DNA of 24,890 bases from Nitrososphaerota archaeon (GTDB taxonomy: Archaea > Thermoproteota > Nitrososphaeria > Nitrososphaerales > Nitrosopumilaceae). The notes beneath the pieces are model-generated. The model made no database searches, was not told where the DNA came from, and saw nothing but the letters and a program-made list of their open reading frames with translations. The position numbers were made by a program, and so were the translations under genes. The stretch spans positions 1 through 24,890 of the forward strand of contig JACZSC010000008.1 of the NCBI GenBank assembly GCA_022574415.1, read 5' to 3'. How positions within the stretch are numbered: position 1 is the first letter of the stretch; each line of letters opens with the position of its first letter. Shown piece by piece: positions 1,986-23,042 of the stretch.

Positions 1986-4754
1986 TCACGCATCTGCCAT
2001 CGTAATTATTCCATTAGTAATTAACCACTGTATCCCTGAAACAAAGTCAGTATCAGTGATCACTCCTTGGGACCACCATCCAGCATTGTTTTTTATCCAA
2101 GAGGGAATCCCATTAGTCATCTCAGAGGTAGAATCTAGCGTTGATGGAGGGACTCTCATTATTCCTTCGTTTATCAAAAACTGAATTCCTAAGACAAAAT
2201 CAGAATCTCCGATTTGATCTTTTGACCACCAACCGGCATTATTCTTAATCCAACTTGGTATTGATATGCCTCCGGAGTGAAGGTCAATTTCTCCTACTGG
2301 AACTATTTTCAAACCTTGGGTTTGAATTCTATCTATAAGAAATTCAAGCTCACGGATTTTTTGTTCATCCACCCGATTCACGTAATTACCATTCTCTATT
2401 ACTGAAAATGCTGGGGGTTCTAGAGTGATCACTGTGAAGCCATACTGGTCTAGAATTTTTTGTACCTCTGAAAACGTTTCCTCATAAGGAATTAGCTCAA
2501 TAACTCCAGATTCCGGATTAAATTTACTGGTTACAGCTCCACTTGGGAAATGATATAATTCCAAATTGCTGAGTTGATATGGAGGAGGATCTTTTTGAAT
2601 GGTCGAGCTAATGTGACTAATATTATTTTCATGCAGAGCTAAAATGGTTGCGTCGTTAAAATTTTCGTAAGGTGGAATAAATACTACTGGCGCCGTTCCT
2701 AAAACACTCGATATTTGATCATTGCTTTGTTTTATGAGGGAGCTTTGTTCTTCCGATGTCAAATCAGTAAAATCTTCATACTCAAATCCGTTGTTTGCGA
2801 TTTCAATCAACTGCCCATTTTTTTCTAACGTGTTTTTTATGTAATCGACGAGTTTTATATCATTGCCAAACAAATTCCCTACGATGCCGGTTGTGATGGG
2901 GGAGTCTTTTCGTACGAACATATCAATTATCTCAATCTGAACATTATTTAAAAAATAATCTTGGACGGGAGCAAATCTAAATGCCACACAATCACAACTT
3001 TGAGGTGTAACCTGAGAGACTCCTGGTTTCTTAACCACATCTTGTTCGCTGACCACTCTGGCCTCTTCATTAATTTCGCTTATGGTAACTAATTTTATTC
3101 CTTCATCTCTTAATTCGTCAATTAGCTTCCCAACCTTACCAATCATTTGTCTGTCTGTCTCACCAGTGTAGACTCCCAATTCAGTAGTTGCAAACTCGTA
3201 GGGATGCATCATAACTACTGCAAAGCCGTATTTCTTTAGAAAATCACGAATTTCCTCAAATATTACCACACGATCCTGAACTTCCCAAGTAACTCCATCG
3301 GGCATCAGTTTAGCCGTTTGAGTATTTGCAGGAAAATAGTAAAGCTCCAAATTTTCAAGAGGATATGGTGGAGAGTGAGTTTCCTCTATGTGAGCAGTAA
3401 CATGTGTGAAACCCAACTCAGGCAAAAGAGCTAATATGTCATCATTAATCGCGTTTAGTGGTGCAACGAATGTTTTGGGGGTTACTCCTAGAACTTCAAG
3501 TAATTTTTCATTTGTTTTTAAAAGAAGGGTTTTCTGATCATTCTTATCAAAATTAGTTAAGGGTTTATTGTTATAACTGTGACTTGCAATTTCAAGCGTT
3601 GGATTCTTATTTACAATTACTCTTTGGAGAAAACTAACTAGATGTGGATCCTCTCCAAAGAAGCCACCAATTATTCCAATTGTAAGATCCGCTTTTTTTT
3701 GCTGGAATAATTCCATGAGATCTACTGCTGCAACTCTAAGATACCAATCTTGAATATCGTCTAATCTAAATGCCACACAGTTACAGGTGCTTTGAGCACT
3801 TTGAGCTAAAACACCCTTTTTAAAAATTGAAATGAATCTCTCTTCCCCTGTAATAGCTGTATCCATGCTAGTCCAGATTTGAGATTCTTGGTTAGGATCA
3901 TCAGTACTCTTAATCACCTGAATTGAATACTTTCCAACCTTGAAGTTTGAAAAGAATGCGTTGCCATGGGTGTTAACTGGGGATTGAGCAACTTTGTTGT
4001 TTTCTGCGTCGTACAATTCTACCATGAAACTTCCATCAGATTTACCTACTTTTTGCGAAACATCCTTGTAAACTGAGATAGTTATGAGATCATCTATTAT
4101 CTTCGGCCACGGTGTTTTTATCTTAATATCTCCTTGAGTTGCTGGATGAAAAATAACTGGAGAGTATACATAAATCAAGTCTTCGTCCACTGAAACTTCG
4201 ACTATGTAAAAGTCGTCTTCGACTAAACTGTTTGACTGTAACCAAAATCTCGTGGTTTCGCCATCACTATCAGTGGTCGCTTGGCCCCATTGATGACCGT
4301 CATCTGATTTTATAGATATTATTGCACCTTCTATCGGTGTTTCATTATCATTGTATAATGCTATAAACCGATATCCTCCAGAAAGTGGAATGATTACTTT
4401 TAGTTTAGCTTCACTTTCTTCTAAATTAAGAAAACTTGACTCGGCAAACATGTTGTTCACATAAACCTTTACCGAGTATTTGTGACCCAATGGAAGTGAT
4501 TCAATCGAGAAAGGATTTGTTTTGGGGTTCTTGATTGTGACATAGGGAATATCTTCATCATCCTGTAATACTCTAATGGTCGTTTGCCAGGTGTTAAGCC
4601 TGTCTCCATTTGTGTACTCAATTTCTACCTTAATCGAACCCATTTCTTCTGCAAAGGATAGGGTTGAACCCGTAATGGCAAAGAAAAAAACTAACAGCGG
4701 TGCTAGCAAAAATTTGGACCTCATCAGTTTGAAATTATTTTTTCTAACTTTCAT
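1986..4754 (-). CDS. Large secreted multidomain protein: N-terminal beta-rich modules, two polysaccharide-deacetylase-like (NodB-like) modules, duplicated C-terminal WIKNNAGWW motif
   Basis: 922-aa ORF with a signal-like N-terminus (LLAPLLVFFFAITGSTLSFA). Two paralogous modules begin CNCVAFRLDDIQD... and CDCVAFRFAPVQD..., resembling the (T/A)FxxDD start of NodB-fold deacetylases. Two C-terminal copies of IPSWIKNNAGWWS...DFV.GIQ.LI..GI are present. The stop-proximal end overlaps the upstream GT2 gene by 11 nt. The deacetylase assignment is only motif-level. Confidence 0.7.
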   Translation of the reverse strand: MKVRKNNFKLMRSKFLLAPLLVFFFAITGSTLSFAEEMGSIKVEIEYTNGDRLNTWQTTIRVLQDDEDIPYVTIKNPKTNPFSIESLPLGHKYSVKVYVNNMFAESSFLNLEESEAKLKVIIPLSGGYRFIALYNDNETPIEGAIISIKSDDGHQWGQATTDSDGETTRFWLQSNSLVEDDFYIVEVSVDEDLIYVYSPVIFHPATQGDIKIKTPWPKIIDDLITISVYKDVSQKVGKSDGSFMVELYDAENNKVAQSPVNTHGNAFFSNFKVGKYSIQVIKSTDDPNQESQIWTSMDTAITGEERFISIFKKGVLAQSAQSTCNCVAFRLDDIQDWYLRVAAVDLMELFQQKKADLTIGIIGGFFGEDPHLVSFLQRVIVNKNPTLEIASHSYNNKPLTNFDKNDQKTLLLKTNEKLLEVLGVTPKTFVAPLNAINDDILALLPELGFTHVTAHIEETHSPPYPLENLELYYFPANTQTAKLMPDGVTWEVQDRVVIFEEIRDFLKKYGFAVVMMHPYEFATTELGVYTGETDRQMIGKVGKLIDELRDEGIKLVTISEINEEARVVSEQDVVKKPGVSQVTPQSCDCVAFRFAPVQDYFLNNVQIEIIDMFVRKDSPITTGIVGNLFGNDIKLVDYIKNTLEKNGQLIEIANNGFEYEDFTDLTSEEQSSLIKQSNDQISSVLGTAPVVFIPPYENFNDATILALHENNISHISSTIQKDPPPYQLSNLELYHFPSGAVTSKFNPESGVIELIPYEETFSEVQKILDQYGFTVITLEPPAFSVIENGNYVNRVDEQKIRELEFLIDRIQTQGLKIVPVGEIDLHSGGISIPSWIKNNAGWWSKDQIGDSDFVLGIQFLINEGIMRVPPSTLDSTSEMTNGIPSWIKNNAGWWSQGVITDTDFVSGIQWLITNGIITMADA

Positions 4755-6714
4755 TCAAACCAATCCTTTTTGCACTTGTCCAACGAGCCTTTTTGCCAAA
4801 AAGTTGTTCTAGTGCCTGCCTCAATAGAATAAAATCAAGTATTTGCTTAAATCCGAAAACGAAAAAGACCGAGAATAGTATCAACTTGGGGTCATCTCCG
4901 TCTATTCTCACAGCTAAACTGGTCAGTAGGTATTGAAGGATAATAAAGAACCCGAAGGAGCCTATGACAAACATATAGTCGCCCTGAATTACTGCTAAAA
5001 TCGCGGAACCGAGAATAAAAAAACCAACTATTGGTAAAATTATCATTGAAAGCACCATATACGGAAATGCAAGTCTCTGTAAAAATCCAAAACGTGGATT
5101 TGTAAGTGCATTACGATGTTTTACTACAACTTGAAGATTGCCTCTGTACCAACGTTTCCTTTGCTTGTAGAAATCAATAAGGGCTTTTGGCGCTTCTGTA
5201 TATGCTATTGCTTTGGTGGTTCCTCTTACCACCATCCCAGACTTTAGAATTTTAACTGTTGTATCAAAATCCTCTACAACTGTTTCCTTATCATACCCAC
5301 CAGCTTCCTGAATCACAGATTTTTTAAATGATCCTAAGGCTCCTGGAACAATTGTAATGGCACCAAACATATCAAAAGCTCGTCTGGCAATCTGTAATCC
5401 AGCAACATATTCAAGAGCCTGACACCAAGTAAGCCAATTTACTCTATTTCTTACCTTAATGTTGCCTGCTACCGCAGAAACATTTTCATCATCTTCAAAC
5501 ACTTTAGCAGTTTCTTTTAATGCGGTCTTGCCAATTATGGTGTCTGCATCTAGTACAGCTATGATTTCTCCATTTGCAAAGCTTATGCCATAATTGAGTG
5601 CAGTTGCCTTACCACCGTTTTCTTTATGCAAAACTTTCACACCATCTCGCTCATATCTATTAGCAATCTGTAATGTCTTGTCTTTACTTCCATCGTCCAC
5701 AACGATTATTTCTTTTTTTGTATAATCAGCTTCCAGTACACTTTCTATAGTATTTGCGATTACTTTTTCTTCGTTGTATGCTGGAATAATTACAGTAATG
5801 GTTGGGTAATGAGGCGGATATCGTATTTGCTCTTCTTTGTATTTACTATACAATGACAAGGGAACCATTAACATAACGCTCCAAAAGGTAATTGTAAATC
5901 CCCATAAAATTACTGCTCTATATCCAGAATTCCATAGCGTATATCCTTCATAAGCAAGTACTCCACCAAAAACAAAAGGTAGAACTAGTAGAAGTATAGG
6001 GAAAATACCTGGTAAGTGTTTCTTACGTCTAAATTTTGATTTTGACCACCGTCTTGCATCCAACAGCTGATAAATTACCAAAAATCCGCCAATTATCATT
6101 GCGCCTGTACTAAAACCTGCGACCAAAGCGTATGGTGCCAAGATAAGAAAAGCGAATATCACGCAAGAAATAAGAATCAAAACAGGATCAAGTTTAACTT
6201 TTGGAAGAACCTCTTCTTCTAAATCTGAAACTTGTTTTGTTCCAACTTTTTGAACCTTTTTCTTTTTAGTTACTTCCGGTTTTGGTTCTAACTCTACTAC
6301 TATATCTGACTGTTTTAGAATTGGCTTTTCTTGAACAGTTGATCTGTAACATTCTGCATGATACCATTTTTTCTCATGTCTGATAGTTCGATCATGAAAT
6401 TCTAATTCTTTTTTACAATGGCCGCACCTCGGAATTGTTTCAGATTTTTCCTCTGGTTCTACAACTTTAGAAGACTGTTTTGAAATTGTTTTTACTATTA
6501 TGGCTTTAGTAATTTTTTCTACTGGTTTTACTGTAGTTGCTCTTACTACAGATTCCTTTTTTGAATATGTATTTTCGATTACAGTTTTTTCTCGGATAGT
6601 TGATCTGTAGCATTCCACATGATACCACTTTTTCTCATGCCTGATAGTTCTATCATGAAATTCTAATTCTTTTTTACAAATCTCACATTTTTGAATTAAA
6701 TTCGTATTTTTCAA
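4744..6714 (-). CDS. Processive family-2 glycosyltransferase (PgaC/IcaA/NodC-like polysaccharide synthase) with N-terminal tandem zinc-ribbon modules
   Basis: 656-aa ORF. GT2 signatures are VIIPAYNEE, VVDDGSKDKT, LDADT and the processive-synthase motif QRKRWYRG. Several hydrophobic helices flank the catalytic domain. The N-terminus carries two CxxC...HxEC modules. Confidence 0.88.
   Translation of the reverse strand: MKNTNLIQKCEICKKELEFHDRTIRHEKKWYHVECYRSTIREKTVIENTYSKKESVVRATTVKPVEKITKAIIVKTISKQSSKVVEPEEKSETIPRCGHCKKELEFHDRTIRHEKKWYHAECYRSTVQEKPILKQSDIVVELEPKPEVTKKKKVQKVGTKQVSDLEEEVLPKVKLDPVLILISCVIFAFLILAPYALVAGFSTGAMIIGGFLVIYQLLDARRWSKSKFRRKKHLPGIFPILLLVLPFVFGGVLAYEGYTLWNSGYRAVILWGFTITFWSVMLMVPLSLYSKYKEEQIRYPPHYPTITVIIPAYNEEKVIANTIESVLEADYTKKEIIVVDDGSKDKTLQIANRYERDGVKVLHKENGGKATALNYGISFANGEIIAVLDADTIIGKTALKETAKVFEDDENVSAVAGNIKVRNRVNWLTWCQALEYVAGLQIARRAFDMFGAITIVPGALGSFKKSVIQEAGGYDKETVVEDFDTTVKILKSGMVVRGTTKAIAYTEAPKALIDFYKQRKRWYRGNLQVVVKHRNALTNPRFGFLQRLAFPYMVLSMIILPIVGFFILGSAILAVIQGDYMFVIGSFGFFIILQYLLTSLAVRIDGDDPKLILFSVFFVFGFKQILDFILLRQALEQLFGKKARWTSAKRIGLNES
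6325..6687 (-). repeat. Intragenic duplication: two 102-nt copies (6325-6426 and 6586-6687) encoding the zinc-ribbon module C(G/E)(H/I)CKKELEFHDRTIRHEKKWYH(A/V)ECYRST(V/I)(Q/R)EK
   Basis: The two 34-aa stretches are near-identical and 261 nt apart. Similarity is also obvious at nucleotide level (gaaattctaattcttttttaca...). Confidence 0.9.
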
Positions 6715-7357: not shown

Positions 7358-8242
7358 TCAAAGATATCTTCTGTATTCCTTGATGTATCTTTTTATGAGC
7401 CATTGAAGGAATATTCTTTCCTCGTTTTTCACCTGTGATCTTTCCAAGGCATTATAGTAGCTATTTCTTCCCTCATATGGAATATCAAGCATTGGATAGT
7501 TTTTCCTGTTAAGGATAAAGTTCATGACAAGCCTGGTAATCCTGCCATTTCCATCACCGAATGGATGTATTGTAACAAATTTCAGATGTGCCAGTGCAGC
7601 AAGCTCAACTGGATGAATCTTATTCTTGCTTTTGTGGTACCATTTGAAAAAATCTGTCATCATAGGGTATACCTTTACGGGTGAAGGAGGCATGAACTTG
7701 CTACCGCTAATTGCTACTTGGTATTTTCTTATCTTTCCAGAGATGTCGGGTTTTGTCAGATGGAAAAGCTCCCAGTGCCAGTCCAGTATTTCCTGCAATG
7801 ACAAGTCTTTTTTCTGTTTTAGAATTTTATAGAACAGATCCCTGTGGGCCTCGGCTTCTTGTACATCTCTCATTGGTTTGCCTTTTGGTGCAATGCCCCT
7901 TTCCAGAAGATCTGCTGTTTCTCTTCTGGTGAGTGTTGATCCTTCTATCCTTTGGGTATCGTATGTAAATCTGGTGGCAAAATTTTGCAGCTCTTTTTCT
8001 TTGATAGATTTTGGTGCTGCCCTTTGCTCTTTGTAAAAGTGCTTTTTGATTGTATCAATATCATCGTACCATTTTTCTTTGTAGATATCATCAAGAAATT
8101 TTTTCTTGATCTTGATGATGTTTTTTGGGATTTTCGTGCCAAGGTAGAGCTCCTTTTTCTGTACCTTTTTGCCGTCCCTCGTGCTATGTTCTAAATAGTA
8201 GTAGATCTTTTTCTTGAGTATCTTCTTTTTTATGGTAACCAT
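7358..8242 (-). CDS. fic: Fic/DOC-family protein (AMPylase-type)
   Basis: 294-aa ORF containing the canonical Fic active-site motif HPFGDGNGRITR (HxFx[D/E]GNGRxxR). Confidence 0.9.
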   Translation of the reverse strand: MVTIKKKILKKKIYYYLEHSTRDGKKVQKKELYLGTKIPKNIIKIKKKFLDDIYKEKWYDDIDTIKKHFYKEQRAAPKSIKEKELQNFATRFTYDTQRIEGSTLTRRETADLLERGIAPKGKPMRDVQEAEAHRDLFYKILKQKKDLSLQEILDWHWELFHLTKPDISGKIRKYQVAISGSKFMPPSPVKVYPMMTDFFKWYHKSKNKIHPVELAALAHLKFVTIHPFGDGNGRITRLVMNFILNRKNYPMLDIPYEGRNSYYNALERSQVKNEERIFLQWLIKRYIKEYRRYL

Positions 8243-8422: not shown

Positions 8423-8464
8423 GTTCGTATCAAATGTAATTCAGGTCTAAACGAATTTATCGAT
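8423..8464 (+). repeat. 42-bp flank sequence 'X' (starts with the GTTCGTATCAAATGT motif), identical copy at 23043-23084
   Basis: GTTCGTATCAAATGTAATTCAGGTCTAAACGAATTTATCGAT is 42/42 identical at both loci. Here it abuts the casposon left end. Confidence 0.95.
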
Positions 8465-8465
8465 T

Positions 8466-8518
8466 ATCGATAAAAAGGCAATCCCCCCCTCTCACGAAGA
8501 AAAATGTGACGGGTAATC
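8466..8518 (+). repeat. Casposon left terminal inverted repeat (TIR-A, left)
   Basis: ATCGATAAAAAGGCAATCCCCCCCTCTCACGAAGAAAAATGTGACGGGTAATC. Its exact reverse complement is at 16908-16960. It contains a C7 run that stands out in AT-rich DNA. Confidence 0.95.
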
Positions 8519-8574
8519 TTCGTAACCTTTTTAGCTGAAATGTGCGTAAACCATGGTAGACCGAGGTAAACAAA

Positions 8575-8844
8575 ATGCCAACAATATCAGCAAAACTGTC
8601 AAAGAAAGAACATGATGCAATTGTTGAATATGCAAATGCTTGTGGAGAAACAGTATCTAATCTTGTAAGAAAGGTAATGTTGACTGAGGCTACCTTCATG
8701 AATGGTTATCATGATTCTATGGATTATCACTATGAGATCACAGTTCCTGATAATGTTTCAGGTGAAGAGGAAGATAGAATTGTTTTAGGTGCCTACAATA
8801 AAATTAGAAGAATTTTAGGTTTGAAAGAGCAAGATGAGATTTAA
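8575..8844 (+). CDS. Small ribbon-helix-helix (CopG/MetJ-like) DNA-binding protein
   Basis: 89-aa ORF. The N-terminus MPTISAKLSKKEHDAIVEYANACGETVSNLVRKVM fits a beta-strand/helix/helix RHH pattern. It is the first gene inside the left TIR. Confidence 0.5.
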   Translation: MPTISAKLSKKEHDAIVEYANACGETVSNLVRKVMLTEATFMNGYHDSMDYHYEITVPDNVSGEEEDRIVLGAYNKIRRILGLKEQDEI

Positions 8845-8847
8845 GAA
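8812..8847 (+). repeat. 36-nt direct repeat (copy 1), 3' end of the RHH gene
   Basis: ATTTTAGGTTTGAAAGAGCAAGATGAGATTTAAGAA versus ATTTTAGGTTTTGAAGAGATAGATGAGATTTAAGAA at 9235-9270 (32/36). A third partial copy, AGGATTTGAAGAAATTAATGAGATTTAA, is at 8853-8880. Confidence 0.8.
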
Positions 8848-8876
8848 TTTTCAGGATTTGAAGAAATTAATGAGAT

Positions 8877-9203
8877 TTAATCTACGATTAGTTGAATCCC
8901 TTGAAGAGATAAACCGAAAATAACCATTCCTAGTGGAATATACTTTGTTTTATAATTCCAATAAACTTCAAAACCTCGATGAACTGGGTCCGTTGCTCCC
9001 TTTGGTGTATGAGCCATCTCAATATATGCAACATCTTTTTCTTCCCATCTTTCAAAACCTTTGTTAATTAGATGCTTAGTTTTCCACTTTTTCCAATTAT
9101 TCTCGGTTGGTTTTTTACCATAATACTTTATCATTAGTATAAACCCAAATATCTCACATGCAATTCCAATCACAGCAATAATTTCAAAAGATTCTAAAAC
9201 CAT
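8877..9203 (-). CDS. Small membrane protein (108 aa)
   Basis: N-terminal hydrophobic helix IIAVIGIACEIFGFILMI and C-terminal helix IPLGMVIFGLSLQGIQLI. It is bracketed by the 36-nt direct repeats. Confidence 0.55.
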   Translation of the reverse strand: MVLESFEIIAVIGIACEIFGFILMIKYYGKKPTENNWKKWKTKHLINKGFERWEEKDVAYIEMAHTPKGATDPVHRGFEVYWNYKTKYIPLGMVIFGLSLQGIQLIVD

Positions 9204-9234
9204 ACGATAGAAATTTGCATTGTATTATCTAAGG

Positions 9235-9270
9235 ATTTTAGGTTTTGAAGAGATAGATGAGATTTAAGAA
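9235..9270 (+). repeat. 36-nt direct repeat (copy 2)
   Basis: See 8812-8847. Confidence 0.8.
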
Positions 9271-9317
9271 CACTGAAAATTTGTCAAAACTTGACGATTA
9301 ATAAAATGAAAATTTAG

Positions 9318-9968
9318 TTAACTCTCTATTTTAGTAATTAATTTTTCAAATATTTCAGATGATCCTCTCAATAATTTGTAAAGTGCATCTATGTTTTGAC
9401 CCCTACTTAGCATTCTACAAGAGTAGGTATTTCCAACACTTTCGTAGCGAGGCTGAATATCTATAGAAAGCCAATCATCTAACCTATCATTATCGCCTTT
9501 AGCAGTAAAATGTAATCTGCTTGTTTGTAATGGTCTGCCTATGATTTCTTCAAAATCTTTTTGTATTCTGGAGTCTTCAGATGCTGCAGATATTGACAAA
9601 ATAGCATTTTTATCACTGATATAATTACTCATACAATCTACTTCGTAAAATCTAACAAATTTTTCAAGATTTGTTTTAAAATCACGATTTGAAACTGAAA
9701 AGAATTCTTTCTGTGCTTCAATTAAATTAGTCACCCGCGGATTATGAAAACCAAAAACTAATTTTGAATAATCTGTATAGAATTCTGTATTTTGTTTTGT
9801 AGCATTAATAGATCCTATGCTTGAAGCAGCCATGTTTTTGTAATTTAGTTGGGTTAAGATATCTGTAATTACTATTCTATCAAGAGGCCAGTAAACACTT
9901 TTCAATCTGATGCCTAATCTTTTATCAATGACCCTTTCTCTTTCAAACACAGGAATTTTTTTTGCCAT
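9318..9968 (-). CDS. Hypothetical protein (216 aa), casposon cargo
   Basis: Clean ORF 6 nt downstream of the wHTH gene on the same strand. No motif recognised. Confidence 0.6.
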   Translation of the reverse strand: MAKKIPVFERERVIDKRLGIRLKSVYWPLDRIVITDILTQLNYKNMAASSIGSINATKQNTEFYTDYSKLVFGFHNPRVTNLIEAQKEFFSVSNRDFKTNLEKFVRFYEVDCMSNYISDKNAILSISAASEDSRIQKDFEEIIGRPLQTSRLHFTAKGDNDRLDDWLSIDIQPRYESVGNTYSCRMLSRGQNIDALYKLLRGSSEIFEKLITKIES

Positions 9969-9974
9969 TGTTTA

Positions 9975-10499
9975 TCAAGTTGTACTTATAGGTTGTTGAT
10001 CCATATTCTCATAAGACATATGTGGTCTAATTTTTTGCCTTAGTGTTCCTACTAGAATAGATTCAAATTTTTCTTTGGTGCGTTCCTTTTCTTGATGATC
10101 TTGTTTTGTGATTTCTTCCCAATCTCTTGCTAGTTTGATTTCTGTTTTATCAGATCCCGACACACTTTCTGTTTTTCTTTCACTAGGATACATTATATCA
10201 AATAAGGAATCAAAAACTAATTCTGGAATGTCTGTGACATCATAATACGAAAAACCTTTATTCCCACTTTTTTCGTAAAAATTCTTTACTAAATTACCGT
10301 CTTGTAATTCGTTTAGTCGAATAGTTAAACTACTGGGACTAAATTGAAATTTTTCTTTTATTTCATTAAATGACATCTTTCCATGTTTTAGCAATGCAAT
10401 CAATAATCCAAGATTTTTTTCATCCGAAATCCCTTTTAGTAAAAGCCTTATTTCCTCAGGCATTTCGTTGGAATAATTTAATAGGGTACTAGAGTACAA
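9975..10499 (-). CDS. Winged-helix (ArsR/MarR-like) DNA-binding protein
   Basis: 174-aa ORF. NLGLLIALLKHGKMSFNEIKEKFQFSPSSLTIRLNELQDGNLVKNF fits an HTH plus wing pattern. Confidence 0.55.
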   Translation of the reverse strand: MYSSTLLNYSNEMPEEIRLLLKGISDEKNLGLLIALLKHGKMSFNEIKEKFQFSPSSLTIRLNELQDGNLVKNFYEKSGNKGFSYYDVTDIPELVFDSLFDIMYPSERKTESVSGSDKTEIKLARDWEEITKQDHQEKERTKEKFESILVGTLRQKIRPHMSYENMDQQPISTT

Positions 10500-10534
10500 T
10501 TTTCTGAATCTCAGTACAATTTCTTGTATTTTGT

Positions 10535-10544
10535 ATATTTATAA
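10535..10544 (+). promoter_or_regulatory. TATA-like box upstream of 10565..11098
   Basis: ATATTTATAA is centred about 25 nt upstream of the GTG start, consistent with a leaderless archaeal transcript. It lies in a 65-nt divergent intergenic region. Confidence 0.3.
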
Positions 10545-10564
10545 TTTGTTATGATATTAATCGT

Positions 10565-11098
10565 GTGAGTGGCCGTTGGGAAAAATACAATCGGAGATTA
10601 GAGAAGGAGTTTGAACCTCTTAAAAGAGTCATGACAATGACTATCTACGGATCGTATTATCCTCAATCAGAAAAAGACTTTCTAATAAGTCAGAGAGATT
10701 TTTTGAGAGACAAAGGATATGAAAATACGAATATTGTAGATGATTATCCTGATCCTGAACCTGATATAACTTCTTTAGAAAAAAGTATAAGATGTTTAGA
10801 ATTTTCTGATGTTAATTTTTTAGTTTTTACTAGAGAAGGAAAACGGTATGGAGTGTCAAGAGAATTAACACATATTGCAACATCAAGTAGAATGATTGAT
10901 AAAATACCTTTTTGTACCGTATTTGAACAAGTTAGAGATGAAAGAGATTCCATACCACCACTGTCTCTTGACGATATAAATAATTCAGGAATTAATAGAC
11001 GAGAATTTGAAACTGAACAACAATTGCAAACTGCTTTATCCCAACAATCTTTTGCAAAACTAAGGAGATTACAAAATACATTAATCAAACGCCTATAA
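10565..11098 (+). CDS. Hypothetical protein (177 aa); weak resemblance to nucleoside 2-deoxyribosyltransferase/TIR-like Rossmann proteins
   Basis: GTG start. The pattern MTIYGSYY ... SDVNFLVFTREGKRYGVSRELTHIA loosely resembles the strand/helix layout and G..xE motif of that fold. Not a secure call. Confidence 0.5.
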   Translation: MSGRWEKYNRRLEKEFEPLKRVMTMTIYGSYYPQSEKDFLISQRDFLRDKGYENTNIVDDYPDPEPDITSLEKSIRCLEFSDVNFLVFTREGKRYGVSRELTHIATSSRMIDKIPFCTVFEQVRDERDSIPPLSLDDINNSGINRREFETEQQLQTALSQQSFAKLRRLQNTLIKRL

Positions 11099-11164
11099 TT
11101 AATCGATATAGTCTTAATGTATAAAGTACCTTAATGTATTTTGAATTGATATAATTCAAAAATA

Positions 11165-12946
11165 TCAAACAGAGTGTTTATCAAAATAATTTAATGATAA
11201 AGGAAATGATTCATTCATAATTTTCTCATCAATAGACTTGATTTGCCCTAACCATAATCTTTTACGATCGGCATTAAGATTAACTTCTCTTTCATATTCT
11301 TTGATCTTACCAATCTCTGAAATGTTATCCTGTAAAATAGAAGAACGAAGTCTAGCACTACGAAGCAATCTAATTTTCATAATTAGTTTTCCATCTTTTT
11401 CATATGTCTGAAGATTTTCAATGTCTCGAGTTCCAAGTCTACCGAGACCACGTTGTTTCCATTTTCCATTATAACGATAAAATCCATTTTGTAAATAGAA
11501 AACATCATCAGCAGTATTCTCAAAAGAAAACTCACCTAATCTATTTGAATCAATATCTAGAAATTTTGTGACGCAAAGACTGTCAGTTGCAAAACTTACA
11601 ACATATCGTTCCAAGCCATATTTTTGCACAAATTTGTATAATTGAGCACGAGTTATGCCTGTAATTGTGGCAAAAATAACAGGATTAAATAAATTTCCTA
11701 TTTTAAATCGAATTCGCTCACCAGTTTTTCCATAGATGGAGTTTAGAATTATTTTAATTGGTAATTGTAGTGGATTCTTGTTTTGTTTTAGTTGTAATCT
11801 TTTTGTGTACATTTTTTCAATAAAATCTTTGAATGGAAAAAATTCTTTATCGGGAATAAATTGAAATGATTTCAAAATTTTATAATTAATGTTTTTACAT
11901 GCTCGTAACTCAGCCAGTGTGCAATAAGTTTGAAACTTTCCTGATGGGAATATAATAATATTATTTGCACGGAAAGGTAATGGTGGAATATATTTACAAT
12001 CAGAAATATTTACTTTAATTTTAAAAAAACCAAGCGTTGCATCACTTTGAATTTTATTTGATGATATCCATTGACCTTTTGTTATATCAGGAATTTTTGT
12101 TAATGCATGTGGATATGCTGAATTAATATCATAAAGATAAGCGGTTCCTATGTAGCCACGTTTTAGAATTTCAAATCTTCCACCAAAGTAACTCCTGTAA
12201 GCTAAATCTTGTATTTCATATGGTATGCAATCAAACTTTGGAATTTCAATATGATTATTGATTAGAACTTTTTCTGCAAGGTAACCAGAACTAATCCATC
12301 GTGCAGGATAAAATGAAAACGCATTATGAAATAAATTTATCCAGTGCTGTGATAATTCTTTAGTATATTTACAATCTGCAATACAATAATTTCTAACTTT
12401 AGTTTTATTTCTGTTATAATATCTTGGTGAAAATTGTGTACGTTCTTTTTTCATTAAAAGATAATCATTAGGTAGATCCTCAATGTTCTGTTGATATGCA
12501 TTAATCAATGAAGTATGATAGAACTGTGCAATATCAAAAAAGATAGAACTATGATGTCCTTTTCTGATGGCTAATTTCCTACTAGGAATATAATCTAGAG
12601 TATAGTCACCATAATGAAATCTCAATAATCCTGTCTTCTTGTAGGAATTGAGCTCTTCACCTAGCAGTTTGAGAATGACTTCAGCATCATAGGTGATATT
12701 ATAGAAAAAGTTCCATGCTCCTTGAAATTTCTTAGAAAATAGGAATTTTAGGCATGATCCAGGCGTGATTTTATCAAGGAATCGGCCATCAGAATCAGCT
12801 ATGAGGAAAGGAGTTCCCTCGTAGGTCTCAGTATCAAGACCATAAACTGTTCTAAGACTAGAACAAGCAAACCGCCTATCTTGATGAACTTTGGTTCGCA
12901 GTCTTCTAAGATCTTTGTAATCTGTTATGGGGATGGATTCTGCCAT
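11165..12946 (-). CDS. polB: Protein-primed family-B DNA polymerase (pPolB)
   Basis: 593-aa ORF. Exonuclease motifs: ExoI YGLDTETY, ExoII NITYDAEVI, ExoIII YCIADCKY. Polymerase motifs: A LYDINSAYP (DxxSxYP), B KIILNSIYGK (Kx3NSxYG), C SFATDSL (variant of YxDTDS). The compact size is typical of protein-primed PolBs. Confidence 0.92.
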   Translation of the reverse strand: MAESIPITDYKDLRRLRTKVHQDRRFACSSLRTVYGLDTETYEGTPFLIADSDGRFLDKITPGSCLKFLFSKKFQGAWNFFYNITYDAEVILKLLGEELNSYKKTGLLRFHYGDYTLDYIPSRKLAIRKGHHSSIFFDIAQFYHTSLINAYQQNIEDLPNDYLLMKKERTQFSPRYYNRNKTKVRNYCIADCKYTKELSQHWINLFHNAFSFYPARWISSGYLAEKVLINNHIEIPKFDCIPYEIQDLAYRSYFGGRFEILKRGYIGTAYLYDINSAYPHALTKIPDITKGQWISSNKIQSDATLGFFKIKVNISDCKYIPPLPFRANNIIIFPSGKFQTYCTLAELRACKNINYKILKSFQFIPDKEFFPFKDFIEKMYTKRLQLKQNKNPLQLPIKIILNSIYGKTGERIRFKIGNLFNPVIFATITGITRAQLYKFVQKYGLERYVVSFATDSLCVTKFLDIDSNRLGEFSFENTADDVFYLQNGFYRYNGKWKQRGLGRLGTRDIENLQTYEKDGKLIMKIRLLRSARLRSSILQDNISEIGKIKEYEREVNLNADRKRLWLGQIKSIDEKIMNESFPLSLNYFDKHSV

Positions 12947-13251
12947 ATAGCATCAGGAATTGAAACTTCTTGTCCTCGCTTTCGTTTTCCAAATTGTCTT
13001 CTAATATCTAAATATTTTAAGTCAGGAAAATTATCTCGGATTAATCTAATGTAACGATGGTATTTTTCTAAAGATGATGAACGTTTACTAACTTTTGGTT
13101 CAGGTGCAACAGTTACTTTTGTTTGTTTTTCTAATCTTTCTAATGCTTTTTGTGTTCTGGAACGAAGTATTCGTACTTCATTATTATTTGGAAATAACTT
13201 TAATGCATCAAGTCTTTTTAAAAGTTTATTTCTTTGTTCTTCTAAACTCAT
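12925..13251 (-). CDS. Hypothetical basic protein (108 aa) immediately upstream of polB
   Basis: Overlaps the polB start by 22 nt, indicating operon coupling. Lys/Arg-rich. No motif recognised. Confidence 0.6.
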   Translation of the reverse strand: MSLEEQRNKLLKRLDALKLFPNNNEVRILRSRTQKALERLEKQTKVTVAPEPKVSKRSSSLEKYHRYIRLIRDNFPDLKYLDIRRQFGKRKRGQEVSIPDAIWQNPSP

Positions 13252-13280
13252 AGTATCACCAAAAAAATATGAAGGTTAGT

Positions 13281-13622
13281 CTAGGTTTTTCCTAGACTAA
13301 ATCTTCGTATTGGTCTATTGTTTCTACTTTTGTCAAGATAGGTCTCGATTGTAAGTTTATCACCAATTTTGATAATGTTGTCTTTACCACCTCTAGTCCA
13401 CTGATTTAGGAGTGAACTGTTTTTTGATTCATGGCTTTTTAGAGGAACAACAATTGTATTCCATTTGTTATTCTCAAAGATTTCAGCTTCAACATTGATA
13501 GAATATTCTGTTTCAAATGTTTCAAGCTCTTTTACACGAATCTTTATTGTGTCTGGTTTGTCTTTGTCTTTGCTTTTGTATTGCCCCCACTTTAAAAAAG
13601 GAGGATAAAGAGAATCACTCAT
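13281..13622 (-). CDS. Hypothetical protein (113 aa), polB operon
   Basis: Its start overlaps the stop of the upstream AbrB-like gene by 4 nt (ATGA). The sequence looks beta-rich. No motif recognised. Confidence 0.6.
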   Translation of the reverse strand: MSDSLYPPFLKWGQYKSKDKDKPDTIKIRVKELETFETEYSINVEAEIFENNKWNTIVVPLKSHESKNSSLLNQWTRGGKDNIIKIGDKLTIETYLDKSRNNRPIRRFSLGKT

Positions 13623-13822
13623 TTTGGAATTCTCCTTTTTGTTTTGATGGGAGTTAGAATCAATCTCCCATCTTGTGACATGGAAACATTTACTTCCATG
13701 TTTTTACTGAGATAGTTCTCAGTGAATGTCTTGGGCAAAGTTACCACTTTAGAAAAATTCATGGTACTGACTTTTCTTGTGCCCAAGTCTAGATTTTTGA
13801 CTATGGATTTTACTTTAGACAT
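13619..13822 (-). CDS. AbrB/SpoVT/MazE-like swapped-hairpin DNA-binding protein
   Basis: 67-aa ORF. SKVVTLPKTFTENYL...VSMSQDGRLILTPI matches the (V/I)T(I/L)PK ... G.(I/L)(I/L)L.P pattern of AbrB-type domains. It is the first gene of the leftward polB operon. Confidence 0.5.
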   Translation of the reverse strand: MSKVKSIVKNLDLGTRKVSTMNFSKVVTLPKTFTENYLSKNMEVNVSMSQDGRLILTPIKTKRRIPK

Positions 13823-13872
13823 ATTATGCTGTTAGTAAATACCTTAAAATGGGATACTAATGTAGCCCACTT

Positions 13873-14559
13873 ATGGAACTGACCTACGGTATTGGACCAA
13901 ACAAAACCAAGTATTGCAAATTTAAGGCTAAAAACTCTGAATTTGTTTACGATATTGACGGAATTCGCAAAGGAAAAAGATTCAAACATGAACAACGCCG
14001 AGAATTAATTATTAATATTATTGCAAGAAATCACATTAGTCATAATCATTTACTACATCTTACAACAGCATTAGGAAAAATTGCAAAAAAAACTACAGTA
14101 AAAATACTCAAAGAACTAGAAGATGATCGACTAATTGAATCAGAGCAGGAAGGAAATAGTTCTAATTCTATAAAAACATGGATGATAAAATCACCAGAAT
14201 CTGAAATTGAGAAACATGCAAAAAAAGAAACACAAAACATCATTGCAAGTTTGCAAGAATACATTCAAACCATAGAGAAAAAATTTGAAAAACTAAACCA
14301 AGTTGAAAAAGATTATGCAATGGCCAATCTTTTAGACATATTACATAGTTGGCAACCAATTATTGAAATTATAAATCATGACACTAGAATTAAAAATGAA
14401 AAGAAAAAGTTTGACTCTCTTCTAAATCAAGCTTATAATATTTTAAAATATGAAAAACGTGATGGTATAGATACAAGATCATTTTTGCGTAGGTTACTGC
14501 ATCTTAAAGCATCAGAACCAATGGTTATTATGAATAATTTTTTAGAGGAAATTAAATGA
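13873..14559 (+). CDS. Putative winged-helix protein with helical C-terminal domain
   Basis: 228-aa ORF. ISHNHLLHLTTALGKIAKKTTVKILKELEDDRLIESEQ is HTH/wing-like. The stop overlaps the start of the next gene by 4 nt. Confidence 0.55.
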   Translation: MELTYGIGPNKTKYCKFKAKNSEFVYDIDGIRKGKRFKHEQRRELIINIIARNHISHNHLLHLTTALGKIAKKTTVKILKELEDDRLIESEQEGNSSNSIKTWMIKSPESEIEKHAKKETQNIIASLQEYIQTIEKKFEKLNQVEKDYAMANLLDILHSWQPIIEIINHDTRIKNEKKKFDSLLNQAYNILKYEKRDGIDTRSFLRRLLHLKASEPMVIMNNFLEEIK

Positions 14560-15125
14560 ATGACTTTACACCTAATCCATTAGTTTTACAAGAACTTGAA
14601 AAAGTCAGTCAAGTTTGGGATAACCTGATAGAAAACATGCATACAAAATCGAATAAAGATAGAATTACATCAATTCTAGTTCAAGTAATGCTTGAGTACT
14701 ACATTGATAGAATTTTGATTATTAACAAAGTTGATTCGCCTAAGAAAATTTACAAGATGAGATATGATAGTACACTCGAAAAATTAAAAGAACTCAATTT
14801 AATTGATAACAACCTTGAACATGACCTGCTGAATTTCTATGAAATTAGAAACATATATGCACATGAAATTGAAATTCATGAAAAACAGATTTTGGATTTA
14901 GTTAATGGTGTTAAAACAGTAAAGGACCCTACTAGATTTATAGAGAAAGATAGATTTCAGCAAGTTTTTCAAATTATTTTACGGCAAGTTCAGAGAACAT
15001 TTGAAGCAGTTCTAGTTAGGGAACAAGAAAAAAGTGAAGAAAATACTCACTCTATATCTCAAAATAATTCTTCTTTTTCACGTAATAGTCTACGATATTG
15101 TGAACAGCAATTTTGGCTATTGTAA
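14556..15125 (+). CDS. HEPN-superfamily (MtlR/DUF4145-like) protein
   Basis: 189-aa ORF. LEKLKELNLIDNNLEHDLLNFYEIRNIYAHE carries the Rx4H HEPN signature in the context typical of MtlR-like HEPN domains. The last ~24 codons run antisense through a cas1 3' relic, so the C-terminus may be chimeric. Confidence 0.5.
   Translation: MNDFTPNPLVLQELEKVSQVWDNLIENMHTKSNKDRITSILVQVMLEYYIDRILIINKVDSPKKIYKMRYDSTLEKLKELNLIDNNLEHDLLNFYEIRNIYAHEIEIHEKQILDLVNGVKTVKDPTRFIEKDRFQQVFQIILRQVQRTFEAVLVREQEKSEENTHSISQNNSSFSRNSLRYCEQQFWLL
15052..15123 (-). pseudogene. Relic of a second, diverged cas1 3' end
   Basis: It translates to ITIAKIAVHNIVDYYVKKKNYFEI*, against the intact Cas1 C-terminus ITIAKIAVQNLVEFCTGKQKEFRI*. 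Nucleotide identity is nearly complete over ACAGCAAT(T/C)TTGGCTATTGT. Homology stops exactly at the TAATCCTGAAAATTC motif (15124). Confidence 0.8.
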
Positions 15126-15144
15126 TCCTGAAAATTCTTAATTC
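15124..15144 (+). repeat. AATCCTGAAAATTCTTAATTC motif copy
   Basis: Exact consensus, directly abutting the cas1 relic. Confidence 0.85.
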
Positions 15145-15271
15145 ATAGTTTGAGATAGAAACTTTATGCCTGTCTGTGAAAAATGCGGTCAGCCAGCTTC
15201 TCAATGTATTACATGAGATGAAGCGAAGGGCGTAACTAGAATACATTATTTTTGCAAAAATCATAATCCAA

Positions 15272-15291
15272 AATCTGAAAATTCTTAATTC
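15272..15291 (+). repeat. AATC(C)TGAAAATTCTTAATTC motif copy, promoter-like
   Basis: AATCTGAAAATTCTTAATTC, followed by TTAGTTTCAACTAGAAAATTCATG. The same leader precedes the ATG at 23977. Confidence 0.85.
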
Positions 15292-15312
15292 TTAGTTTCA
15301 ACTAGAAAATTC

Positions 15313-15552
15313 ATGACCGATGATAAAAAAATGAAAATCATGTGCAAATGGTGTAATGTTTCTAAAACCTGTCACATCGTTAGTCAAGAAATTACAGATC
15401 ATCATGGACACTATGGGATAGATAGTGTTATGATGGCCAAAGTCAAAATTCACAAGCATTTCAAAGGAAAAAATTACTGCAAAGGCTCAGATAGAACAAT
15501 TACTGTACCTCTAGATAAGATACTAAAAGATAATGAAAAGAATAGAGATTAG
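15313..15552 (+). CDS. Small Cys/His-rich protein (79 aa)
   Basis: CKWCNVSKTCH...DHHGH...CKG. Preceded by the conserved leader and followed immediately by the AGATTCTAAACTCTTTTT relic. Confidence 0.55.
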   Translation: MTDDKKMKIMCKWCNVSKTCHIVSQEITDHHGHYGIDSVMMAKVKIHKHFKGKNYCKGSDRTITVPLDKILKDNEKNRD

Positions 15553-15568
15553 ATTCTAAACTCTTTTT
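15551..15568 (+). repeat. AGATTCTAAACTCTTTTT: copy of the cas1 stop-codon region
   Basis: Identical to 15773-15790, which encodes the last Cas1 codons KEFRI* on the minus strand. Confidence 0.85.
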
Positions 15569-15770
15569 TTCACAAAAATTAATGAAAAACGTGCTCAAGT
15601 GTTCGTACCAGTGCGTATTCTCGGATCAAAGTCAAACAGTAAACCTTTATCCACTTACTCGAAATGTTTGACTATGGGAGTAGGTCGAACACAAAGACAT
15701 TATTGTAACAAGTGTCATCTAAAACGCCCTAAATGTATCTGTAAAAAACAGTAAACGAGATTAATAATTC

Positions 15771-16850
15771 TTAGATTCTAAACTCTTTTTGTTTTCCAGT
15801 ACAAAACTCAACTAAATTCTGTACAGCAATCTTGGCTATTGTTATTTCATGACAAGACTTTAGACCGTCTTTGGTCTTTGCTCCATGTTTAGACGCATAG
15901 CGTCTTTCTTTCTGGAATGTTCTTTCAAGTAATTCTAAGAACCGTCTAATCAAATTATAGTCTAAAACAACTAAACCCTCTTTTGTAAAGGCGTAATCTT
16001 TCTTGTAGATTCTATGCTCTTTATTGGTTTCATTAGCTAACATGTATGCAGAATAATCAACAAGCCATCTGAACGGCTCTATCAAGTCATAAACTAACGG
16101 CTGAAAACTAATGTGTTCTTTGTGATAGAATCCAAAGTATGCATCTAGACCCATTCCGTTGATATATTTGGAAATCTCTCCAGCTAAAACCGAATAGCCG
16201 TAATTCAAAAGCCCATTAATGACATCACTAGCAGTTCTTTTTGAAATCTTCTGACTAGACTGATTTCTTGAAACAAATCCATGCCTTTCAGGAATTAGTT
16301 TTGAATATTCAATAAAGTACGCTCGACCAGAACCAGCCTCTAAACCCAATTCAGAACGTATTGAAACTTGTCTTAGATTACCCTCAAGAGTTTCAATTCC
16401 TAAATTCAAGTCAGTCCTTTCTACAGACTTTAAGAATCTGATCTGCGATTGTAATTTTGCTTTAACAATCTGCTTTGAAAGGTATCTTCTCTTTTCTGTA
16501 TCCCTAAAGGTGTCATACTGAGCCATTCGATATTTTGTCGCAGTGTTTGATTCCATTACACCATTAATCATAGAAACTGGCTTTCCGTAGGTATCTAGTA
16601 GAATAAGATTTCGATTATGTTGATTTAGTAGGCTCATGGCTTCGGTTGAAACGTAGCCTTTACCAGATAGAACGATTTTTTCATAAGGAAGATTATTGAT
16701 GAACCATTCTTCTGATTCGGATTCTTTGAATGGGTCGTAATTGTTCTTTAGAACAAGTTTGTTATCTTTTACAGAAACAGAAAAGCCGTAACCCTTGAGA
16801 AATTTTACGTTGTAATGACTGTGTTGACCTTTCTGCGTCATAACGCACAT
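15771..16850 (-). CDS. cas1: Cas1 homologue (casposase-type Cas1-solo)
   Basis: 359-aa ORF. Cas1 signatures are ILLDTYGKP (N-terminal beta domain), GLEAGSGRAYF (catalytic Glu region), NGLLNYGYSVL, and YFGFYHKEH...LVYDLIEPFR (catalytic His and Asp/Glu). A C-terminal extension is present. The gene ends 58 nt from the right TIR. Confidence 0.93.
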   Translation of the reverse strand: MCVMTQKGQHSHYNVKFLKGYGFSVSVKDNKLVLKNNYDPFKESESEEWFINNLPYEKIVLSGKGYVSTEAMSLLNQHNRNLILLDTYGKPVSMINGVMESNTATKYRMAQYDTFRDTEKRRYLSKQIVKAKLQSQIRFLKSVERTDLNLGIETLEGNLRQVSIRSELGLEAGSGRAYFIEYSKLIPERHGFVSRNQSSQKISKRTASDVINGLLNYGYSVLAGEISKYINGMGLDAYFGFYHKEHISFQPLVYDLIEPFRWLVDYSAYMLANETNKEHRIYKKDYAFTKEGLVVLDYNLIRRFLELLERTFQKERRYASKHGAKTKDGLKSCHEITIAKIAVQNLVEFCTGKQKEFRI

Positions 16851-16907
16851 TTGATCAAAATTATTACTTAACGAATTTCCAACAAATCATAACGTGCATT
16901 ATAACGT

Positions 16908-16960
16908 GATTACCCGTCACATTTTTCTTCGTGAGAGGGGGGGATTGCCTTTTTATCGAT
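16908..16960 (-). repeat. Casposon right terminal inverted repeat (TIR-A, right)
   Basis: Exact reverse complement of 8466-8518. Subterminal direct sub-repeats (C/T)ATAACGTG x2 lie at 16887-16908. Confidence 0.95.
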
Positions 16961-16961
16961 T

Positions 16962-17040
16962 ATCGATAAAAAGGGAAAGTCCCCCTCCCACGCACGAATT
17001 ACGCTTATGACTTGCGTTATGACGTGAGTTGGTTTGTTGG
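16962..17040 (+). repeat. Diverged casposon-type end (TIR-B) lying head-to-head with TIR-A right
   Basis: ATCGATAAAAAGGGAAAGTCCCCCTCCCACGCACGAATTACGCTTATGACTTGCGTTATGACGTGAGTTGGTTTGTTGG. It shares with TIR-A the ATCGATAAAAAGG terminus, a C-rich block, two CG(C)TTATGAC sub-repeats and a terminal ...TTTGTTGG (cf. CCAACAAA at 16879). Confidence 0.8.
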
Positions 17041-22065: not shown

Positions 22066-22109
22066 CTAAGAATTAAGAATTTTCAGGATTAATAGTTCGT
22101 ATCAAATGT
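22066..22109 (-). repeat. Composite repeat (AATCCTGAAAATTCTTAATTC motif + GTTCGTATCAAATGT motif), inverted partner of 23918-23960
   Basis: The reverse complement ACATTTGATACGAACTATTAATCCTGAAAATTCTTAATTCTTAG matches ACATTGATACGAATTGTTAATCCTGAAAATTCTTAATTCTTAT, with 1 indel and 3 mismatches. Confidence 0.85.
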
Positions 22110-22984: not shown

Positions 22985-23042
22985 TCTTCTAAATAATTAT
23001 CTTTGAAATTTGATTATTCAGACTAGAACAAATCTGTTGACA

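Follow-up and report, generated by a model that had tools for sequence, protein, structure and literature searches.

Which molecule primes DNA synthesis by the family B DNA polymerase (PolB) encoded in a 24,890-nt stretch of contig JACZSC010000008.1 from a Nitrososphaerota archaeon (the window, taken here at its full length)? The first-pass annotation of this DNA placed the polymerase gene, polB, at the end of a leftward four-gene operon and offered three sources of a priming terminal protein: the product of a 108-codon gene (p108), that of a 113-codon gene (p113), and the N-terminus of PolB. We found that the four genes almost certainly constitute the replication module of an intact family 1 (thaumarchaeal) casposon. 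The candidate primers were cut from three to one gene, p108, and two of its residues, S107 and Y67, can be named. Protein priming by p108 appeared to be the single most likely mechanism, with a probability that we place somewhat short of even, and the whole statement (a family 1 casposon replication module that includes protein priming by p108) is held with slightly less than even confidence. A casposon of this kind is a self-synthesizing transposon of ammonia-oxidizing Thaumarchaeota whose integration depends on a Cas1 casposase. The CRISPR adaptation machinery is proposed to descend from casposons, and the replication of those of family 1 has been an experimental question since 2014. In the original definition of family 1, its marks are cas1, a polB of the protein-primed type and a set of three small genes that are conserved (Krupovic et al. 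2014, PMC4046053). Three to four conserved small genes lie upstream of casposon polB, and the adjacent one was proposed to encode the terminal protein (Krupovic et al. 2014, 2019; PMC4046053, PMC6563490); terminal proteins are usually encoded just upstream of protein-primed PolBs (pPolBs; PMC4046053). The hypothesis of a small polB-adjacent gene as the source of the primer, published in 2014, was re-derived here. Added to it are a predicted OB-fold in p113, an internal hairpin with a T-tract, two architecture types, and a KxRG motif in PolB that sets protein priming and self-priming side by side as explicit alternatives.

The minus strand of the window carries four co-oriented open reading frames (ORFs), as judged from ORF calls and translation, in the order p67, p113, p108, polB. 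The p67/p113 junction is a 4-nt overlap, p113 and p108 are separated by a 29-nt gap, and p108 and polB overlap by 22 nt, exactly as had been noted at first pass. The parts of the module are the following.

13619-13822, minus strand: p67, 67 aa, first gene of the module; small DNA-binding-like protein, possibly AbrB/SpoVT-like.
13281-13622, minus strand: p113, 113 aa; predicted OB-fold, probable single-stranded-DNA-binding protein.
13261-13300, minus strand: stem-loop followed by seven T (T7); possible internal terminator or attenuator, from folding against shuffled sequences.
12925-13251, minus strand: p108, 108 aa; small, basic, all-helical protein, translationally coupled to polB; best terminal-protein candidate.
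11165-12946, minus strand: polB, 593 aa; family B DNA polymerase of the protein-primed type, PF03175.

None of p108, p113 and p67 had a Pfam family above threshold or a source annotation. Their homologues (112 in the database for p108, of 101-115 aa; 41 for p113, of 106-120 aa; 19 in related loci for p67) nevertheless mark these small ORFs as real genes and not chance frames. The p108 gene is preceded by a GGTGAT Shine-Dalgarno sequence at 13255-13260, 3 nt before its ATG. Ahead of p67, ~24 nt from its ATG, stands a TATA-like ATTTTAAG (13843-13850), as would suit a transcript with no leader.

The module lies within an element of ~8.5 kb that extends from 8472 to 16954 and is bounded by terminal inverted repeats (TIRs) of ~47 nt, each flanked by a target-site duplication (TSD).

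8459-8471: left TSD, 13 bp, ATCGATTATCGAT, with the leader ...GAATTT before it; identical to the right copy.
8472-8518: left TIR, 5'-AAAAAGGCAATCCCCCCCTCTCACG..., from the repeat search and related TIRs.
15771-16850, minus strand: Cas1-family casposase, 359 aa, matching PF01867 at 7.7e-46 over residues 20-309, with no extra domains.
16908-16954: right TIR, from the repeat search and direct reading.
16955-16967: right TSD, ATCGATTATCGAT, identical to 8459-8471.

The longest inverted repeat of the window paired 8456-8518 with 16908-16970 (63 nt, 98% complementary). The left end reads ...GAATTT / ATCGATTATCGAT / AAAAAGGCAATCCCCCCC... and the right end ...GGGGGGGATTGCCTTTTT / ATCGATTATCGAT / ..., so that a perfect 13-bp direct repeat after a TTT leader flanks the element; the exact frame of the TSD inside a 19-nt direct repeat was set by analogy with the family 1 target. 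This layout supports membership in family 1 because it has the same format as the experimentally determined target of the Ca. Nitrosopumilus koreensis casposase, also of family 1: a TTT minimal leader and a 13-bp TSD whose first letter is A and whose last is T (PMC8464041). The TIRs of related casposons showed the same A-run ... CCCCC pattern, and Cas1 adjoined polB in most related loci. Known family 1 casposons (NitSJ-C1/NitAR1-C1, NitAR2-C1, NitDev, NitNF5, and NitEve) share with the present element the compact Cas1 without a helix-turn-helix (HTH) domain, the pPolB, the TIRs, the 13-bp TSD after TTT, and three to four conserved small genes immediately upstream of polB. The element differs from them in its intergenic site (instead of the ef-2 gene), in its cargo genes, in the decayed solo TIR beside it, and in a PolB at most ~65% identical to that of any locus in GTDB representative genomes.

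Related loci were collected by a scan of one genome per GTDB species with PolB alignment, and their ORFs were compared with the window proteins by BLASTP and iterated hidden Markov models (HMMs). The scan returned 40 closely related loci (PolB identity 46-67%), both published casposons of Ca. Nitrosotalea devanaterra (L004 and L030) among them. The hosts of loci with at least 46% PolB identity were Nitrosarchaeum, Nitrosopumilus, Nitrosotalea, Nitrosotenuis or Thaumarchaeota records, except for one binned as Chitinophaga (L006) and one labelled only "archaeon" (L007). Loci with a PolB at least 56% identical to that of the window, plus L033, were assigned to type A, and those with 46-50% identity to type B. 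The DNA upstream of polB was readable in 39 thaumarchaeal loci, which cover both polB subclades. A p108 homologue came directly before polB in every one of them, and p108 was the only one of the small genes to accompany polB in all 39. By comparison, p113 was found in 20 loci and p67 in 19, with p67 at the same position as in the window, and all of these were type A. Neither p113 nor p67 was detected by HMM in 15 type B loci that carry p108-polB, with up to 20 kb searched; where type A has p113 and p67, type B has a divergently oriented gene of ~200-245 aa upstream of p108. Because p108 occurred in 39 loci of both types and p67 and p113 only in type A, p108-polB forms the universal core of the module and p67-p113 a subclade accessory. 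The terminal-protein proposal made at first pass had been staked on homologous elements having the small ORFs: p108 was present in every element examined, and p113 and p67 were missing from type B.

The two gene pairs are also set apart by an RNA structure. The hairpin between p113 and p108 was the one terminator-like site found in 10900-14100, a region that averages 1.2 such sites when shuffled. The stem-loop (13276-13300) spans the p113 stop codon, with a 10-bp stem formed by 13291-13300 and 13276-13285 and an AAAAA loop; the T7 tract at 13261-13267 comes directly after it and is followed by the p108 Shine-Dalgarno sequence. The predicted minimum free energy was -17 kcal/mol (z = -7.1), and 0 of 200 shuffled sequences folded equally well. 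Related type A casposons showed a hairpin and an oligo-T tract at the equivalent place, with different stem sequences (z ≤ -2 in 15 of 18 sequences, the window included). RNAalifold returned no consensus structure for the p113-p108 junction, where the hairpins were out of register in the MAFFT alignment, and conservation was judged instead by folding each sequence singly against its own shuffles. Archaeal transcription terminates at oligo-T tracts, and the hairpin with its T-tract may be an internal attenuator, in which case more p67 and p113 than p108 and PolB would be made. Because this conserved hairpin and T7 tract separate p67-p113 from p108-polB, we describe the module as two translationally coupled pairs rather than as one uniform operon. 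The co-orientation behind the earlier four-gene operon was borne out; its uniformity was not.

PolB matched PF03175 (DNA_pol_B_2; organellar/viral protein-primed type) at 1.3e-25 and phrog_11768 at 1e-61. The motifs read from its translation were ExoI D38-x-E40, YNITYD, YCIADC, motif A DINSAYP and motif B KIILNSIYG, and the Exo I-III, motif A and motif B columns were invariant in the family alignment. The nearest viral PolBs were those of His1 (2e-30) and His2 (4e-28). A phmmer search of PolB against the PDB gave no match, so a family profile was needed; its best solved match was the phi29 DNA polymerase (2e-8), in an alignment over residues 225-487 that runs continuously from before motif A through terminal protein region 1 (TPR1), motif B and motif C. 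We place PolB among the protein-primed family B polymerases, in their archaeal branch of His1/His2 type. Grouping with RNA/DNA-primed PolBs, which had been named at first pass as the result that would speak against a terminal protein, was not what we observed: the enzyme grouped with protein-primed ones (PF03175, phi29 DNA polymerase, His1/His2). ExoI begins 37 residues from the PolB start, and there is no N-terminal extension. A terminal protein fused to the polymerase is excluded because only ~37 residues precede D38-x-E40, which leaves no room for a primer in the N-terminus.

Motif C of PolB reads SFATDSL, the ATDS reported previously, against a canonical YxDTDS, and residues 497-500 (window ~11447-11458) form KQRG at the KxY position. 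An exhaustive HMMER search returned 6072 representative PolB relatives. The first motif C Asp was absent in all 122 full-length relatives among the best 150 of these 6072. Among the aligned relatives, motif C was ATDS in 36 (including the window), ATDG in 18, FTDS in 14, HTDS in 12, and of other forms in the remainder. The KxY position of the clade was occupied by [KR]xRG, with 58 KxRG and 29 RxRG among 123 aligned sequences (the window and 122 relatives). To our knowledge, [KR]xRG in place of KxY has not been discussed for casposons. The motif C of the clade is xTD[SGC], and ATDS is clade-wide and no peculiarity of this element. A check of the variant in homologues had been proposed at first pass. 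Variation in motif C had already been noted for some archaeal pPolBs in 2017 (Redrejo-Rodriguez et al., PMC5695915).

The loss of the first canonical Asp, together with the decayed solo TIR that adjoins the element, might suggest a decaying relic, with ATDS as the sign of an inactive polymerase and the small ORFs as mere remains. We give this reading hardly any credence. All 122 full-length relatives also have no first Asp, and catalysis by the primer-independent PolBs (piPolBs) of bacteria needs the second Asp only (PMC5695915). None of the ORFs is broken, and their lengths are conserved. The TIRs match at 98% complementarity, the two TSD copies do not differ, and an identical PolB was found on an independent 6.1-kb ENA metagenome contig.

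The most conserved feature of p108 is its C-terminal tail, I-P-D-A-I-W-Q-N-P-S-P. Across 111 database homologues and the 39 loci, residues W103, N105, P106 and S107 showed little or no variation, which gives the pattern W-x-[NT]-P-S with a final residue that is P, G, A or absent. Of all hydroxyl residues in the protein, S107 and Y67 alone were near-invariant. In type A loci, the last seven p108 codons overlap the polB start (22 nt). At least 9 type B loci have a polB frame closed upstream, which limits the overlap to 4 nt, and the tail is still W-[RS]-N-P-S-P. Because the tail is kept in these loci, it is conserved at the protein level, and dual coding does not explain it. The net charge of p108, counted from the sequence, is ~+13, in agreement with its earlier description as basic. 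Its AlphaFold2 model was locally confident (predicted local distance difference test, pLDDT, 90) but not globally so (predicted template modelling score, pTM, 0.48), and consists of a helical hairpin (3-17, 24-44), a variable Lys/Pro-rich linker, and helices 59-74, 80-91 and 100-104.

A small, basic, helical protein whose C-terminal half is HTH-like in the model (helices 59-74 and 80-91) could also regulate polB expression or transposition, at the transcriptional or another level, and take no direct part in DNA synthesis; the neighbouring casposon genes encode small DNA-binding proteins as well. Translational coupling to polB throughout two divergent subclades is more than a regulator would need, however, and the highest conservation was in the exposed C-terminal tail and not in a DNA-reading helix. 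In addition, the comparison of p108 and all 111 family members with Pfam and PHROGs gave sub-threshold noise only (e.g., Herpes_UL87) and no HTH family. We therefore regard a purely regulatory p108 as improbable. A SAP/HeH-type motif was considered for the C-terminal half and rejected, as it had no Pfam support.

The other small proteins fit accessory roles. The AlphaFold2 model of p113 (pLDDT 92, pTM 0.81) has the order strand-strand-strand-helix-strand-strand, which fits an OB-fold, a five-stranded barrel whose helix comes between strands 3 and 4. Its Foldseek neighbours in the PDB were weak (E 0.09-0.5) and mostly single-stranded-DNA-binding proteins (SSBs), namely Rim1, LEF-3 (baculovirus), human SSB1, PRD1 P12, SsbA and RPA. 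Those in BFVD were phage proteins with TM scores of 0.63-0.65 (E 2e-3), and DUF669, LEF-3 and annotated SSBs were also found. The invariant aromatic and basic residues of p113 (W12, W75, F9, F36, K11, K62, R106 and R107) fit binding of single-stranded DNA. Against Pfam, the family gave noise only (CBM39, Big_14, B3 in 4 members) and no SSB family, and its profile matched no PDB sequence. We regard p113 as a predicted OB-fold protein that probably binds single-stranded DNA. Of the name AbrB-like, given to the 67-aa gene at first pass, only a tentative AbrB/SpoVT-like label is kept: the match to PF04014 was sub-threshold (E 0.031, 14.7 bits, cut-off 24.7) and was shared by 4 of the 19 family members, and the p67 family profile had no match in the PDB.

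These results also bear on p113 as the terminal protein in place of p108. It is conserved in type A, it belongs to the same gene string, and it has invariant serines (S17, S66 and S99). Yet HMM searches found it in none of the 15 type B loci that still have p108-polB, its model is a compact OB-like barrel with SSBs as structural neighbours, and the hairpin and T-tract lie between p113 and polB. We consider it very improbable that p113 is the primer. Among the three candidates of the first-pass annotation, p108 remained the best and the other two became unlikely. The profile searches and structure predictions proposed there gave an SSB-like OB-fold for p113 and no recognizable relative for p108.

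The module was then compared with systems in which a small gene precedes a polymerase of this type. In phi29 (genes 6-5-4-3-2, encoding a DNA-binding protein, an SSB, a regulator, the terminal protein and the DNA polymerase), small regulator and SSB genes are likewise co-transcribed ahead of the gene directly upstream of a PolB with TPR1 (in the casposon, as judged from the profile alignment), and the genome has inverted terminal repeats, as does the casposon. The differences are that p108 (108 aa, basic) has no detectable similarity to the phi29 terminal protein (266 aa), that PolB here has ATDS, KQRG and a shorter TPR2 region, and that the element is integrated by Cas1 and is no virus.

His1 (Halspiviridae) and His2 (Pleolipoviridae), which have the closest viral pPolBs (motif C ATDC; KTRG), also carry a small ORF directly upstream of polB (His1 ORF11, 105 aa; His2 ORF15, 153 aa). 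His1 ORF11 ends in ...RRDIWQKYGSP, which resembles the p108 tail IWQNPSP. This tail was kept in 5 of 6 aligned sequences (ORF11 and 4 of its 5 database homologues), down to ~50% identity, and the sixth ended in ...NFIES. Beyond the tail, the upstream ORFs of the two viruses have no detectable homology to p108; the viral proteins are acidic, and the viruses have capsid genes and no Cas1.

The third comparison was with the piPolB of pipolins (Redrejo-Rodriguez et al. 2017), another self-synthesizing integrated element whose polymerase has lost the first motif C Asp and carries K-x-R-G. This piPolB (TTDG) is an active enzyme that requires only the second motif C Asp; KTRG was presented as a motif that replaces KxY in piPolBs specifically and is linked to handling of the primer terminus, and the lysine needed for de novo priming is that of KH in KH-X8-KTRG (PMC5695915). 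The present element differs in having no KH-X8 lysine, in its use of Cas1 and not a tyrosine integrase, in being archaeal where piPolB elements are bacterial or mitochondrial, and in a PolB that clusters with His1/His2-type pPolBs.

PolB might accordingly work without a protein primer, either by a de novo start like the bacterial piPolBs or from a host-made or TIR fold-back primer. In that case p108 would be a basic DNA-binding accessory that is not covalently linked, for example in end recognition and opening or in processivity. Both deviations, [KR]xRG for KxY and the loss of the first motif C Asp, are clade-wide, His1 and His2 have exactly KTRG, and both have been described as hallmarks of active piPolB (PMC5695915). 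Moreover, p108 is highly basic and shows no similarity to any terminal protein, and the TPR2 segment of PolB is ~15 residues shorter than that of phi29 in the profile alignment. On the other side, the KH lysine of piPolB has no counterpart: the position is occupied by N487-G488 in PolB and by S/T/N-G across the clade. The strict one-to-one coupling of p108 with polB and the invariant C-terminal Ser tail are what a consumable primer predicts. Bath et al. are said to have found, in 2006, that the genome ends of His1 and His2 are protein-linked, which would also weigh against primer independence. Overall, we judge synthesis without a protein primer, the main rival, to be unlikely, although far from negligible.

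Protein priming by p108 is favoured because of the universal coupling to polB, the invariant exposed C-terminal Ser tail, the His1 parallel, and the affiliation of PolB with pPolBs. Several observations weigh against it. PolB shares both piPolB hallmarks, the lost first motif C Asp and K-x-R-G for KxY. At 108 aa, p108 is smaller than any characterized DNA terminal protein that we know of (that of phi29 has 266 aa). It is strongly basic throughout, in contrast to the priming domain of the phi29 terminal protein, which is acidic and mimics DNA. It has no sequence or structural likeness to any known terminal protein. The Foldseek comparison of its model with the PDB, which included the phi29 terminal protein-polymerase complex (2EX3), reached no E lower than 2.7 and did not pick out the phi29 terminal protein, and hhalign comparisons with His1 ORF11, His2 ORF15 and a 130-aa upstream-protein family from 78 metagenome loci were not significant. 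The assignment of p113 as an SSB, which belongs to the same picture, depends on weak Foldseek scores (best E 2e-3). Two further searches with p108 were negative: its profile found nothing below E 0.29 among PDB sequences, and tblastn gave no match in phage genomes.

In the mechanism that we propose, p108 would be a miniature terminal protein that, in complex with PolB, offers a hydroxyl for the first deoxynucleoside monophosphate. S107 in the W-x-N-P-S-P tail would be the first candidate for the priming residue and Y67 the second. The excised element would be replicated from its TIR ends, with p108 left on the 5' ends. The 3'-OH ends would stay free for integration by the casposase; because a 5'-linked protein leaves the 3'-OH free, casposase attack would be compatible with protein priming. 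Displaced strands would be coated by p113 as a single-stranded-DNA-binding protein, p67 would act as a small DNA-binding or regulatory protein, and the hairpin and T7 tract before p108-polB would lower read-through.

A broader and more doubtful reading is that p108 represents a new class of miniature terminal protein (~100-130 aa), with the priming Ser as the last or penultimate residue of W-x-N-P-S(-P)-COOH threading into the polymerase active site, and that His1 ORF11 (IWQKYGSP-COOH) is of the same kind. Under this reading, to which our doubt applies as a whole, other small proteins encoded upstream of archaeal xTD/KxRG pPolBs might be alike, several of which end in G/T/A-S/T-P or V-Y-G. If it is true, the xTD/KxRG changes, which piPolB has as well, would reflect adaptation of the active site to a primer end that is not DNA. 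If p108 does not prime, the His1/casposon polymerase clade may be a second group of primer-independent PolBs.

Proteins encoded upstream of other pPolBs were also inspected. A sister pPolB clade (L105-L184) was represented by metagenome contigs, many of them 10-11 kb long (~10.5 kb), in which polB ends 100-150 nt from the contig end; this suggests that they are complete small linear replicons. In 78 metagenome loci of this clade, one homologous family of 128-146 aa was encoded directly upstream of polB, with varied tails, rich in aromatic and hydroxyl residues and suggestive, among them ...AVYGV, ...TVYD, ...PELYP, ...PEKADT, ...GFDTSP, ...MGSP, and ...GFGTP. A general rule that the upstream protein has a hydroxyl residue in its last three positions is not claimed: it applied to ~11 of 15 tail types, scored by eye, against ~43% by chance, and a large subgroup has Ala for the aligned Tyr. 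In actinobacterial tectivirus-like contigs (L094-L100 and L075), the ORF just upstream of the pPolB gene, or next but one in two loci, ends in N-P-[FL]-W-Y-[HS], with the variant SPFWYEKRG in L075. This is a further conserved C-terminal aromatic/hydroxyl tail beside a protein-primed polymerase.

The surroundings of the casposon showed traces of other integrations. Directly after the right TSD, at 16968-17040, lies a decayed second left-type TIR (AAAAAGGGAAAGTCCCCCTCCCACG...), which looks like what is left of a tandem integration. The 40-nt leader occurs a second time at 23036-23075. Next comes TTT / ATCGATAAAGAGT, in which 12 of 13 positions agree with the TSD of N. koreensis, ATTGATAAAGAGT (PMC8464041); after this leader copy comes a further decayed TIR (~23092-23160). 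The window holds one occupied casposon target and one relic target.

Two short motifs recurred in intergenic DNA. The 15-nt motif GTTCGTATCRAATGT had seven intergenic copies against ~0.01 expected (plus strand at 7290, 8423, 17052, 17685, 22095 and 23043; minus strand at 23774), two of which are just upstream of the casposon leaders. Rfam gave no match at these sites, and Rfam and tRNA scans of the whole window were also empty. The ~21-nt motif AATCCTGAAAATTCTTAATTC was found in both orientations, inside the casposon and also beyond it, at 22-24.4 kb. The copies may have a promoter, operator or terminator function in common, or they may point to a related mobile element nearby. Its sites, from the repeat search, are the following.

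8838-8858, 15124-15146, 15271-15293, 22070-22091, 23506-23527, 23935-23957 and 24361-24381, both strands: AATCCTGAAAATTCTTAATTC.

Among the neighbouring genes, a Fic/DOC-family protein (7358-8242, minus strand; PF02661, 3.5e-23) is encoded ~200 nt from the left target site of the casposon. On the host side, a gene at 105-1949 (minus strand) encodes a 614-aa pentapeptide-repeat protein and is the source of dense 15-nt-periodic repeats, and another at 4744-6714 (minus strand) encodes a family 2 glycosyltransferase whose N-terminal CxxC module is duplicated (93-nt repeat at 6326-6418 and 6587-6679, 90% identical). A 66-nt tandem repeat at 24462-24890 runs off the right end of the window.

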